Source: Candidatus Pacearchaeota archaeon
GTDB taxonomy: Bacteria > Patescibacteriota > Minisyncoccia > Minisyncoccales > Minisyncoccaceae
DNA: 41,870 nt
Assembly: GCA_035362415.1 (NCBI GenBank)
Contig: DAOSDM010000005.1
Location: 1 to 41,870, forward strand
Direction of reading: 5' to 3'
Under the pieces are notes generated by a model. It had not been told where the DNA came from. It did no database searches and was given only the letters and a program-made list of their open reading frames with translations. A program made the translations under genes and the position numbers. Below, in pieces: positions 32,034 through 35,019 of the stretch (within the stretch, counting starts at the first letter, position 1; each line of letters opens with the position of its first letter).

Positions 32034-34142
32034 CCTATTTTGGCGACCACTTCCTGGCTCGCCTGTTGATCCACTACCCCCCCTAGATTCTTGATTGCCC
32101 GCATCTCTTCCCTGAGCAGGTTCGGGAGCAAAATCACTCAATGTTGTTTGGCGAGTTCCATCAGAAAATATCTGTCTTTGAGGTTGTGAAGGTTGAGGAC
32201 AATAAGGACATGATCCAGATGTAAAATATTTCTTTAAAGAAGCATTAGCGTTATTAAAGAAATCATTGTAATTTCTATTTACCGCACCAATAAATTCATT
32301 ATCTTTCTTTCCTCTTGCCCCAAACTCATTTCCGGTCCAGTGTTTTGCTATAGCCTCTCTTATTGCAGAAGAATTTTCAATAGCTTTTACGCTAATATCA
32401 AGTGCTTTTTCTCCTGTTGATTTAGCAATAACCTCTTCTAGCTTAGTATCATACCCTTGACTAATAGGCCCACCCAAACTCATTAACCTCCTTTCATCAT
32501 TTTGATCACCCATTATAGAAGATTTCATAACCTTTTCTTGAGTGCCTTTATCCCCAAGTGTTTTTACTAAATTAAATAGCTTTTCTTCTTGTTTAGCATT
32601 TGCCTTAGCTAAATATTTTCCTATTTCAGCCGAAGTCATTTTAGATATCATGGCTAGCTGTTGTCTAGAACTTCCAGTAACAATATTTTTATTCATTTCA
32701 TTATCTAAATCTTCGGCAGATGTTTTATCGCTAAATGCTTTTGCTTCTTCTTGTACAATTTTAGCATGATCTTCTGCTGCTGTAGGAGCTTTAGTCCATT
32801 TTCTAAATATTGAAGCAGGTCTAGTGGCTAGCCTTATAGCGTTATCAGTTAGAGTATTGTCGCGGCTCATCTCAGGCAAAGCATCTCCTCTAGCCACAAG
32901 TCCTGTCGCTCTTTTTTGCATATCATTTTTTACTGCATATCCCATAGATTTACCAATTTTAGCAGCAGGAGATAGGAAATACTTTGATTGACTCTTGGCT
33001 TCGTTTACTATCTCTGTAACCTCTTTTGGTACCATTTTCTTAGAAATGATTAAAGCCATTATGAGGAATATTGCTAGTAAAAAATATGTAGCAAACATTG
33101 TTCCTAAGTCATCTAAATTAAAAAATATAAAACCACCGGCCTCTTTTCCTAATCCTGCCAAAGACATTTCAGCAGGTTTTTTTAATATATACGTTGCAAG
33201 CATTAAGAAAAATGTTAGTGGCACAGTAAACATGCTCCAGTGAATTAAACTATTTAGCCACTGTTCTCCCATTTTTTTAGTTTGAGGAAGCACAAAACAA
33301 AGCACTGCAAGGGGTGAAATTATAGTAAATATTTGAACAACTGCGATTCTTAAAAGAAGCACTGTAAAATATATAAAGAAAACAGAAGATAAAATAAAAC
33401 TTATTCCTAATTGAACAAAAAATGTTAAAACGTTTGGTAAAAGCATTACTCCAAGTAATGTAACAGCTCCTGCTTGTACCACTGGACCAAGAACTACAGT
33501 CATTCCAGACAAAGTTAATCCAACTAAGTAAGTGATGATTGAGGCTATTTGATCGCCAGAAGCTGTCATAGCCTGCTTTACTAAAGCTCCAGCTATTTTT
33601 CCATCTTCTGCAGTAAAATTAGTAAAAGAATCCATCAAAATATTAGAAACATCAACAAGTATCTGACAGAATAAAAAACTGAAATTTACCAAAAGAGCTG
33701 CCACAATTAATCTAATAATTGCTTTTTTAGGCTCAAACTTATTCCACTTCATAATATAGGAAAGTGCAACAACAACAAATAGAACAATTATGATTAAATT
33801 AGCTAAGCCAGAAGTAAAATTCCATCCAGCTATTACAATCTCATTTCCTCCAAGACTTAGAAGATTATTTGGATCTTGGAGCAAATAATCAACACCTATA
33901 CTACTTAAAGACATTGTAATCCATCCCACACAATACAAAACTAGAACTACGAAAAAAGATTCTACTACGGGGCCTGATGTCTCTTCAATTGCGCCTAATG
34001 CTGAATCAAAATAGTCAAAAATTCCAGTACCAATAAAGGCATGTGTACTCTGAGGTACTAGCATTGCAAATGATAAGATAGCAAAAAATATTAAAATGAG
34101 TGCTTTATATTTTTTTATAATATTAAACATACTATTCATCAT
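32028..34142 (-). CDS. VirB6/TrbL-like polytopic membrane protein with hydrophilic C-terminal tail
   Basis: Signal peptide followed by at least 8 TM helices, then a ~330-aa hydrophilic tail. This architecture, and its position in the cluster, fit VirB6/TrbL. Confidence 0.55.
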   Translation of the reverse strand: MMNSMFNIIKKYKALILIFFAILSFAMLVPQSTHAFIGTGIFDYFDSALGAIEETSGPVVESFFVVLVLYCVGWITMSLSSIGVDYLLQDPNNLLSLGGNEIVIAGWNFTSGLANLIIIVLFVVVALSYIMKWNKFEPKKAIIRLIVAALLVNFSFLFCQILVDVSNILMDSFTNFTAEDGKIAGALVKQAMTASGDQIASIITYLVGLTLSGMTVVLGPVVQAGAVTLLGVMLLPNVLTFFVQLGISFILSSVFFIYFTVLLLRIAVVQIFTIISPLAVLCFVLPQTKKMGEQWLNSLIHWSMFTVPLTFFLMLATYILKKPAEMSLAGLGKEAGGFIFFNLDDLGTMFATYFLLAIFLIMALIISKKMVPKEVTEIVNEAKSQSKYFLSPAAKIGKSMGYAVKNDMQKRATGLVARGDALPEMSRDNTLTDNAIRLATRPASIFRKWTKAPTAAEDHAKIVQEEAKAFSDKTSAEDLDNEMNKNIVTGSSRQQLAMISKMTSAEIGKYLAKANAKQEEKLFNLVKTLGDKGTQEKVMKSSIMGDQNDERRLMSLGGPISQGYDTKLEEVIAKSTGEKALDISVKAIENSSAIREAIAKHWTGNEFGARGKKDNEFIGAVNRNYNDFFNNANASLKKYFTSGSCPYCPQPSQPQRQIFSDGTRQTTLSDFAPEPAQGRDAGNQESRGGSGSTGEPGSGRQNRP

Positions 34143-35019
34143 CTCCTTTTATTATTTTATAACAATCCAAACTTTCATTAGGATTAGCAAGCATTCTGTC
34201 AACATTACCCACAGCTCCAGGGATAGACAATAATTTATCTCCACATGGATTTATTAAATCCCAAGAAGGGCTAGCTCCATACAATTCGACGATACACGAA
34301 TCGTCTTTTATAAAACCACCCTCGCAATATAGTTTAGTCTTATCTTCTGCTTGATATAGCTCACATAGCTTTTCATCAATTTCTTTTTCGCCTTCAACCG
34401 TCCTCATTTCTCTATAAGCTATGTATGATTTCGGATTAAAGTCTGTCACGTATTTTATAATTTCTCCGGCAGGTCCAAGAAAAGCGTTATCAAATGAAAA
34501 AGGTGTTTCTTTGTCTAAGAAATTGACTATTTCGCGTTTTTTACCAGTAAAGTTTTTTTCCTCCCAAAACACAACTTTTGTACATTGTCCCTTAGGTAAG
34601 TCTGCTGGTTTAAACCCAGATTCACCTAATTCCATATCATACTCAATATTAGGTACAACAAGATTAGTTAATGAAGGATTAATAGTATTTAATATAAGCC
34701 AACTTGATAAAAGGAGTGCTAATCCAATAAAAGCATCTTTAATGTTATCTTGAGCTTCTTTAATTTTATTAGCATTACCAGTAGAGGTCATGTAAGTAAA
34801 ACCAGCAACAACAATTGCTACAAAAGCAAGCAAGATTCCTATTGAGACCCCCCATTCATATATATATCTTACAAGAGTTGTTATTTTTGTCCCTTCTCCA
34901 ATACTTGTTCCTCCAGGAGAGTTTGGCCATTCTAATTCATATGCCAAAACACTTGTTGTGCCTAGTACCAAAAACAATGATATAAACAATAAAATAGAAG
35001 TGATATATTTGTTTTTCAT
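34132..35019 (-). CDS. VirB2/TrbC-like pilin-domain protein with C-terminal Cys-containing extension
   Basis: Signal peptide, then two hydrophobic helices separated by a short loop (GFTYMTSTGNANKIKEAQDNIKDAFIGLALLL). Overlaps the VirB6-like gene by 11 nt. Confidence 0.45.
   Translation of the reverse strand: MKNKYITSILLFISLFLVLGTTSVLAYELEWPNSPGGTSIGEGTKITTLVRYIYEWGVSIGILLAFVAIVVAGFTYMTSTGNANKIKEAQDNIKDAFIGLALLLSSWLILNTINPSLTNLVVPNIEYDMELGESGFKPADLPKGQCTKVVFWEEKNFTGKKREIVNFLDKETPFSFDNAFLGPAGEIIKYVTDFNPKSYIAYREMRTVEGEKEIDEKLCELYQAEDKTKLYCEGGFIKDDSCIVELYGASPSWDLINPCGDKLLSIPGAVGNVDRMLANPNESLDCYKIIKGDDE

Follow-up and report, generated by a model that had tools for sequence, protein, structure and literature searches.

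The stretch of DNA analysed here (the window, 41,870 nt of contig DAOSDM010000005.1 in assembly GCA_035362415.1) is a chromosomal, origin-proximal type IV secretion system (T4SS) locus of a Patescibacterium (Paceibacteria-type) with a monoderm, MPF-FATA-like machine. Two of its minus-strand genes encode proteins of 295 and 920 amino acids (aa) that are paralogous carriers of one VirB2-like hairpin, with different ectodomains attached at opposite ends: the hairpin lies near the N-terminus of the 295-aa protein and at the C-terminus of the 920-aa protein. Together with a small pilin encoded beyond the window, the genome encodes a canonical pilin-type protein and two modular ones, three in all, and the two modular proteins are more likely to be accessory, ectodomain-displaying subunits or anchors.

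An initial annotation of this DNA had pointed to a motif, TxxGNxx(I/V)...KD...IGLxLLL, common to the two proteins. Both open reading frames (ORFs) and the strings quoted for them are present (Table 1): GFTYMTSTGNANKIKEAQDNIKDAFIGLALLL corresponds to residues 73-104 of the 295-aa protein (34708-34803), and GIKFFTALGNPKVIVQIKDLWKYIGLGLLIII to residues 864-895 of the 920-aa protein (36788-36883). The shared motif is there, although its spacing is slightly off, with the I of the 295-aa protein lying four residues after GN and not three. The proposed layout of hydrophobic helix, loop and hydrophobic helix is seen in both proteins by hydropathy and in AlphaFold2 (AF2) models. The AF2 helices span residues 46-78 and 83-113 of the 295-aa protein (hydropathy segments 8-26, 57-75 and 95-113) and residues 834-869 and 874-907 of the 920-aa protein (hydropathy segments 3-21, 838-856 and 887-905). 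At 31-36 residues these helices are longer than a membrane span requires, and none of the Cys of the two proteins (6 and 34, respectively) falls within them. The loops of the two hairpins, TSTGNANKIKEAQDNIKD and TALGNPKVIVQIKDLWK, contain three Lys each, and both proteins fit the VirB2/TrbC pattern of a leader, presumably cleaved, followed by two hydrophobic helices with a short polar/basic loop.

At the pairwise level, the evidence from sequence for homology of the hairpins is suggestive only. BLASTP aligned the two segments with 13/37 identities (E=4e-4), and their Smith-Waterman score of 54 compares with 31+/-6 for 6- or 10-residue block shuffles, 6-8 of 2000 of which reach 54 (p~0.003). 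Family profiles were decisive. Eighteen orthologues of the 920-aa protein plus one fragment, and 62 relatives of the 295-aa protein, were collected, and the 18 C-terminal sequences of the first family were compared by hhalign with 61 pilin domains of the second, giving a probability of 96.9%, an E-value of 2e-10 and a score of 60.9. The reversed alignment scored 17 and column shuffles 12.6+/-2.5. Shuffled hydrophobic segments had been named in the initial annotation as the yardstick for the alignment, and 12-column block shuffles that keep the helix/loop/helix layout reached 16.0+/-3.6 (maximum 29), so that the family score stands about 12 standard deviations above them. A hidden Markov model (HMM) of the 295-family pilin, run on the six-frame ORF set of the window (n=267), matched its own ORF (5e-43) and the C-terminus of the 920-aa protein (3.6e-5) only; it also matches the C-termini of 142 of 146 relatives of the 920-type module at E<=1e-3. 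Because the profile score lies far above the architecture-preserving shuffles, and a single second HMM match occurs in the window, the similarity is homology, and by these profile comparisons the two hairpins are homologous pilin-type modules, belonging to the T4SS_pilin family in the broad sense. The pair of pilin-core paralogues with different ectodomains, as first annotated, is borne out by hhalign, the HMM search and AF2/Foldseek. A chance likeness of two hydrophobic helix-loop-helix segments, with the 920-aa C-terminus an unrelated transmembrane (TM) tail, could draw on the modest pairwise values and on the sub-threshold PF18895 match of that isolated C-terminus (12.1 bits, E 0.21, its sole Pfam match), but it is rejected as next to impossible given the profile-profile score, the failed reversed control and the reach of the 295-family HMM and of PF18895 (23 of 70) among the module relatives.

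The 295-aa protein matches PF18895 (T4SS_pilin) at residues 44-113 with 39.1 bits against a gathering threshold of 26.6 (E 8.1e-10), covering profile positions 3-71 of 71; its isolated N-terminus gives 40.5 bits, and an identical database protein (P0002) carries the NCBI name 'pilin'. For this and for the 920-aa protein, fold assignments rest on predicted models. In the AF2 model of the 295-aa protein (mean predicted local distance difference test, pLDDT, of 81) a signal helix is followed by the hairpin, then by a disordered linker (119-130) and lastly by a beta-rich domain (146-290); the signal peptide is probably cleaved. The C-terminal extension of ~170 aa noted in the initial annotation is real and holds all 6 Cys, and in the predicted model its domain has a double Greek-key betagamma-crystallin fold. 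Residues 129-295 match no Pfam family at E<=10, and hence not Pfam Crystall; the PDB profile match of the ectodomain to beta-B2 crystallin, at a WEEKNFTG motif, reaches only E~2, and the Ca-binding motif N/D-N/D-x-x-S/T-S is not evident in it by eye. A 20-residue helical insert and the missing Crystall match set the domain apart from microbial betagamma-crystallins (Protein S, spherulin 3a, clostrillin, nitrollin and the Flavobacterium 'carbohydrate binding protein' domain).

The two-part architecture of hairpin and ectodomain is kept in about 40 homologues of the 295-aa protein. Mean pairwise identity within the family is 63% in the hairpin versus 22% in the ectodomain, and three motifs are invariant: WPxSP, found directly after the signal peptide in 41 homologues, YEWG, and SWLILNTINP. 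Some larger proteins contain a relative of the 295-type domain centrally or at their C-terminus, and two of these (P0055 and P0057) carry VanY (PF02557).

The full-length 920-aa protein has no Pfam match, neither the full length nor the C-terminus matches NCBIfam, and none of its 18 orthologues (34-100% identity) is Pfam-annotated. Residues ~490-800 form tandem fn3/immunoglobulin (Ig)-like domains with a recurring Y-x-W-x-V-x-x-C...C...F-x-T motif, and Foldseek matched the ectodomain to tandem fn3/Ig ectodomains with E-values down to 7e-14. The pLDDT is 85-93 for residues 510-800 and below 50 for much of residues 1-480, where the model is unreliable. The C-terminal module has the layout VPCGR...(16)...C with two invariant Cys, followed by the hairpin and a GYNVGVFGNFLK tail; the two Cys probably close the loop by a disulfide.

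With the isolated 129-aa C-terminus as query, a word-indexed search returned one relative only, and an exhaustive profile search was needed, in which the 112-residue module was compared with 1.84 billion cluster representatives (clusters at 50% identity). It matched 1,907 representatives at E<=1e-3 and 334 at E<=1e-10. In the best 150 relatives, which range in length from 129 to 1668 aa (median ~790), the module is C-terminal, and free-standing members of ~145 aa, made up of a signal peptide and the module only, exist. Pfam searches of 70 relatives detected PF18895 in 23 at E 0.01 or better (best 2.3e-9) and TrbC in one, together with N-terminal domains that were Ig-like (31), fn3 (7), PKD, LamG, beta-repeat or Peptidase_M23 (2). 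The C-terminal module is a large family that the curated PF18895 model largely misses. Fusions of pilin-type hairpins to peptidoglycan hydrolases were seen with VanY and with Peptidase_M23, and their domain content hints that some modular pilins may carry cell-wall-active cargo.

The third pilin is found on a public contig (L004) that is 100% identical to window positions 26710-41870 and extends 5.26 kb further. This 138-aa protein (Table 1) combines a signal peptide with a GIVPCKGMEC frame and a hairpin, and it matches both PF18895 (3.7e-7) and TrbC/VirB2 (3.8e-6; 27.5 bits against a cut-off of 27.9). Orthologues of 127-187 aa occupy the same place in related loci (L001:3290-3676, L006:3120-3503 and L088:179-742), and that of L001 passes the TrbC cut-off with 32 bits. 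In an alignment of small pilins and free-standing 920-type modules, a common GLVPC...C frame and a G...W-x-E tail are apparent, with the Cys-Cys loop of the 920-type modules lengthened by 13 inserted residues relative to the small pilins. Cross-HMM scores connect all three pilin classes (small, 295-type and 920-type), and the predicted hairpin superposes on the Aeropyrum conjugative pilin with 2.9 A over 72 residues. The initial annotation had proposed a modular system of one major and one minor subunit; the modularity stands, but the pair is incomplete, and the canonical 138-aa pilin is the more plausible major subunit.

Species-representative genomes were scanned with the 295-family alignment, which gave 155 confirmed matches; 80 loci were kept, labelled mostly as Paceibacterota, Nealsonbacteria, Parcubacteria and other Patescibacteria, and the genome-context counts rest on fragmented contigs of metagenome-assembled genomes (MAGs). 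The recurrent gene order is a 920-like gene, a gene of ~216-248 aa (the place of the 248-aa gene in Table 1), one or more opposite-strand genes, a PF18895 pilin of ~300-450 aa and a polytopic protein of 650-840 aa, with PrgI, TrsD and VirB4 further along. The opposite-strand genes at the place of the 204-aa gene encode 127-212 aa. This order is kept at 34-57% protein identity in L001, L003, L006 and L007, and also in L088, where the large protein has 1,668 aa and a pectate-lyase-like beta-helix replaces the fn3-like repeats, joined to the same C-terminal module. Where at least 8 kb of sequence lies downstream of the 295-type pilin (48 loci), 42 loci encode VirB4 and 37 encode a 704-like protein. 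On the upstream side, a large protein ending in the C-terminal module (an ORF of 620-2163 residues) is encoded on the same strand at a distance of 0.5-1.9 kb in 17 of the 52 loci that have 6 kb or more of upstream sequence, and in 24 of 80 once shorter loci are included. At least 100 residues follow the hairpin in 73 of the 80 pilins of the 295 type (median 175). Tandem arrays of 2-5 pilin genes, with products of 420-1250 aa that have an N-terminal hairpin and a long extension, occur in L043, L044, L046 and L050, and in L048 and L071 the ~300-aa pilin gene has 3-5 genes for small pilins immediately upstream. Both modular genes are retained as neighbours of the T4SS core, and the hairpin and its gene position are kept while the ectodomains are exchanged between lineages.

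Table 1. Pilin-type genes, their domains and T4SS-associated genes at the locus.
Feature	Position	Strand	Basis
295-aa modular pilin gene: signal peptide, T4SS_pilin hairpin, linker and betagamma-crystallin-fold domain	34132..35019	-	
Sec signal peptide, predicted, residues 1-26 (...SVLA/YELEWPNSP)	34942..35019	-	hydrophobic segment 8-26, AF2 helix 4-23
Pilin hairpin, residues 44-118, ending in invariant SWLILNTINP	34666..34890	-	
C-terminal ectodomain, residues 144-295, betagamma-crystallin fold (predicted), helical insert 211-231, 6 Cys	34135..34590	-	
920-aa gene: signal peptide, Cys-rich beta ectodomain and C-terminal pilin-like module	36710..39472	-	
Ectodomain, residues 28-808, 32 of 34 Cys	37049..39391	-	AF2, Foldseek, Cys count
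C-terminal pilin-like module, residues 809-920 (~112 residues)	36713..37048	-	
138-aa small pilin	L004:605-1021 (window-equivalent ~46108-46524), 4.2-4.7 kb past window end		next to rpsO/pnp
VirB4 ATPase, 589 aa	27269-29038	-	NF045971 CD1110-type VirB4, 1e-108, 364.6 bits vs cut-off 325
TrsD / VirB4-N-terminal-like protein, 212 aa	29043-29681	-	TrsD 3e-07
PrgI/VirB3-like protein	29683-30105	-	PF12666, 36.8 bits vs cut-off 27
SPFH/Band-7 membrane protein in T4SS cluster	30685-32001	+	profile scan
704-aa polytopic membrane protein, VirB6 position	32028..34142	-	TM scan
204-aa membrane-anchored protein, between both pilin-module genes	35120..35734	+	ORF list, TM scan, synteny
248-aa bitopic protein, between both pilin-module genes	35955..36701	-	PsbP match E 0.005, weak, below threshold

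Both modular pilin genes are encoded with a T4SS: VirB4, TrsD and PrgI lie 4-7 kb from them on the same strand, and a putative VirB6 lies closer. Relative to the CD1110-type profile, VirB4 begins near model position 169, and the N-terminal region is a separate TrsD-like gene immediately upstream, the product of which scores 30.5 bits, under the TrsD model cut-off. A separate TrsD-like gene next to VirB4 fits the published survey in which TrsD is the most abundant T4SS component in Patescibacteria (PMC12102498). The 704-aa protein has an N-terminal signal/TM segment, ~8 TM segments in residues 59-361 (~9 hydrophobic segments in all) and a hydrophilic tail of ~340 aa; since neither Pfam nor NCBIfam gave a match, it is identified only provisionally as the VirB6 counterpart, by position and topology. 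The start of its gene is overlapped by the stop of the 295-aa gene by 11 nt, and the start of the 920-aa gene overlaps ksgA by 17 nt.

By its size and topology, which are those of a VirB8-like component, the 248-aa protein is a candidate VirB8 analogue, with the weak PsbP match as its sole profile hit. A minus-strand gene for a 133-aa protein without an assigned family also belongs to the T4SS cluster. The SPFH/Band-7 gene is present in L004/L005 as well, and L001 has a 142-aa gene instead. PADLOC gave no match for these accessory genes (204, 248 and 133 aa, and SPFH), and no relaxase or type IV coupling protein (T4CP) families were found among window ORFs of at least 90 aa. The surrounding genes include dnaA and dnaN (21622-24130), rnpA, yidC and jag (24456-25967) and ksgA (39456-40268). 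A CD1110/FATA-type VirB4, a separate TrsD and PrgI, in an origin-proximal setting and without a relaxase or T4CP, identify the system as an MPF-FATA-like T4SS of the Patescibacteria clade.

Such systems were described by Quinonero-Coronel et al. 2025, who reported an MPF-FATA-related VirB4 and widespread TrsD, PrgI, VirB6 and VirB2-like proteins, encoded near dnaA, dnaN, rnpA, ksgA and rpmH without a relaxase, and accompanied by arrays of 2-11 divergent pilin genes (PMC12102498). Both the T4SS of Southlakia epibionticum (SEML1_0006-0019) and its array of pilins are essential (Wang et al. 2023; PMC10633639; PMC12857230). In reviews the function of the patescibacterial T4SS is called unknown, and a pilus an 'intriguing possibility' (PMC11665869, PMC12857230). 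The present locus agrees with the published ones in its VirB4, TrsD, PrgI/VirB3 and VirB6-position protein, in having no relaxase or T4CP among the scanned ORFs, in its setting by dnaA, dnaN, rnpA, yidC and ksgA, and in its several divergent PF18895 pilin-type genes. It departs from them in its pilins: the published ones are small proteins recognised by PF18895/PF04956, whereas large modular fusions account for two of the three pilin-type proteins here, and those profiles do not detect the 920-aa one.

The canonical VirB2/TrbC precursor is a small, single-domain protein of ~70-130 aa. The 295-aa and 920-aa proteins resemble VirB2/TrbC/TraA (PF04956) in their predicted cleavable leader, in the pair of long hydrophobic helices with a short polar/basic loop between them, and in the location of their genes in a T4SS locus, but they are three and nine times larger, carry folded, globular ectodomains of ~150 and ~780 residues, and belong to a monoderm system. 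Modular type IV pilins, such as Streptococcus sanguinis PilB/PilC, in which a pilin module is joined to a vWA or lectin module, are minor subunits that function in adhesion. The design, a conserved polymerisation module with an appended functional domain, is the same; the fold and the machine are unrelated, as type IV pilins have a class III signal peptide and a single N-terminal helix in place of a VirB2-type hairpin and a T4SS. Another comparison is with the Mbov_0395-family pilin-like conjugal transfer protein of Mycoplasma integrative and conjugative elements (ICEs; NF045849), which belongs to a wall-less/monoderm MPF-FATA system. It matches residues 47-113 of the 295-aa protein (E 6.3e-6) with 25.8 bits, below the 40-bit cut-off, and the Mycoplasma model has 80 positions, hence no ectodomain there. 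VirB4 and TrsD, too, give matches to the VirB4 model of Mycoplasma ICEs. In Bartonella Trw (TrwL/TrwJ), and among VirB5 tip adhesins, divergent pilin-type genes are thought to diversify binding to host surfaces (PMC12102498, PMC12857230). Several divergent pilin-type genes per locus are likewise found here, but while variation in Trw resides in small pilins and a separate VirB5, the putative binding domains of the present locus are part of the same polypeptide as the pilin core, and the locus showed no VirB5 homologue.

A mechanism may be proposed in which both modular proteins would be exported via Sec and their leaders cleaved, and the hairpin would insert with both ends outside and the Lys-containing loop inside. 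Out-in-out insertion of this kind is the established topology of VirB2/TraA pilins. Because both ends of the hairpin would be outside, either ectodomain would be extracellular whichever terminus it is fused to, and such a placement fits the many Cys and the signal peptides. The VirB4/VirB6 machine would draw pilin hairpins out of the membrane pool, with the small TrbC-like pilin probably supplying most subunits of a pilus or wall-spanning stalk. The modular pilins would be incorporated sparsely, at the tip, or docked at the base, where they would expose variable domains, adhesive or enzymatic, to the host cell and take the role played elsewhere by VirB5 tip proteins or PrgB-type adhesins. This division of labour, with the small pilin as bulk subunit and the modular pilins as sparse, tip or basal subunits presenting ectodomains to the host, is the favoured reading and is given an even chance of being correct. 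The wider proposal is put forward tentatively: a portable hairpin, fused at either end to swappable host-binding or cell-wall-active ectodomains (crystallin, fn3/Ig, beta-helix, M23 or VanY), that is built into a VirB2-type pilus or wall-spanning stalk.

Several points weigh against incorporation into a pilus or stalk. Against TrbC/VirB2 (PF04956), the 295-aa N-terminus gives E 0.61 and the 920-aa C-terminus no match. Since neither match is significant, the link of the hairpins to VirB2 is an indirect one, which runs via the families and the small paralogue; the 295-aa protein passes PF18895, and the 920-aa C-terminus alone fails that model. Sequence searches of the PDB with the 295-family profile, with the small pilin alone, and with a profile of small pilins and 920-type modules found no solved VirB2-type pilin, and all that they returned were spurious matches to signal peptides or to 'GLVPC'. 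Conservation in the 920 family does not favour the hairpin over the ectodomain (51% versus 40-53% identity). The large upstream partner accompanies the 295-type pilin in no more than 17 of the 52 loci with enough upstream sequence. The small pilin sits outside the T4SS cluster proper, beside rpsO/pnp. An ectodomain of ~800 aa is hard to reconcile with a place in every subunit of a compact helical filament. Finally, a pilus is yet to be demonstrated in a patescibacterial T4SS, and Gram-positive MPF-FATA systems are pilus-less (PMC12102498, PMC12857230).

The pilus-less MPF-FATA T4SSs (PMC12102498) are one reason to consider that the hairpin is a mere two-helix membrane anchor for surface proteins, or their docking module on the VirB6/VirB3 platform, and that both proteins are fixed envelope/stalk components or adhesins which never polymerise. 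In topology both resemble bitopic-hairpin surface proteins, ectodomains of this size speak against dense packing, and the module ends very diverse ectodomains, M23 peptidases included, among its best 150 relatives, as a generic anchor would. This explanation is nevertheless rather unlikely, as hairpin conservation in the 295 family, with its invariant YEWG and SWLILNTINP, exceeds the need of a simple anchor, the helices are long for that purpose, the module is homologous to free-standing small pilins that match TrbC, and pilin arrays are essential in Southlakia (PMC10633639). Less credible still, and improbable overall, is a pilus with the 295-aa protein as major subunit, coated by betagamma-crystallin domains, and the 920-aa protein as minor or tip subunit. 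The 295-type gene is indeed the pilin most tightly coupled to the VirB6-position gene, through the 11-nt overlap, and the one most constantly present beside VirB4; the flexible linker at residues 119-130 parts the hairpin from a compact domain of ~150 residues that, by a rough geometric estimate of our own, could fit outside an F-like pilus lattice. The same genome, however, encodes a canonical-size pilin with TrbC similarity in a conserved position, and in L048 and L071 several small pilins directly precede the ~300-aa one.

Other genes of the window (GC ~30%), the content of which is bacterial, include two class A penicillin-binding proteins (PBPs), an alpha-2-macroglobulin and a sigma-70 family factor. 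The 2,110-aa alpha-2-macroglobulin (MG2, bait region, TED and bMG10; 11088-17420, minus strand) lies directly beside one of the PBP genes (9045-11087, plus strand), and the second PBP gene is at 5052-6935. Three type IV pilin-like proteins of ~300 aa, which are modular pilins of the separate and unrelated type IV pilus machinery, with the PF07963 N-terminal methylation motif and a lectin-like Laminin_G_3 domain, are encoded on the minus strand at 454-1350, 1340-2230 and 2881-3795. An AAA_14/DUF4143 ATPase gene (26001-27131, minus strand), which matches the PADLOC candidate defence family PDC-S01 (3e-143), sits between virB4 and jag/yidC/rnpA, and is not at that spot in L001. The archaeal label of the MAG looks wrong, as its contig carries genes for DnaA, DnaN, PBPs, YidC, RnpA and a sigma-70 factor, and the relatives of the contig are Paceibacteria. 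Identical proteins in the database (P0002 and P0064) bear the NCBI label 'Candidatus Pacearchaeota archaeon', and similarly doubtful labels (Woesearchaeota, Gammaproteobacteria, Bdellovibrionales and Saccharibacteria) are attached to related loci, among them L057, L030, L059 and L067.

The locus type, the PF18895 pilin and multi-pilin arrays are already known. In the literature searched, coverage of which was incomplete, no description was found of ectodomain-fused VirB2-type pilins, of a betagamma-crystallin fold fused to a T4SS pilin, of a conserved pair formed by a large protein with the C-terminal module and a pilin-plus-extension protein, or of a pilin class that current profiles largely miss. 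The role of the T4SS in Patescibacteria has been described as completely unknown (PMC11665869), yet in the sole species examined the system proved essential (PMC10633639). Surveys at present register small pilins only, via PF18895/PF04956, whereas the present locus shows the pilin fold fused also to large, fast-diverging ectodomains. At the least, a new profile is called for, and T4SS censuses in the phylum now under-count pilin-type genes. If the fusions are assembled by the T4SS, they would be obvious candidates for host-specific contact or cell-wall attack by epibionts; they would also be the first case of modular VirB2-family pilins, and would name host-recognition candidates for the T4SS that is essential in Southlakia epibionticum. 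The findings suggest that the secretion machine of these epibionts displays swappable host-contact modules.

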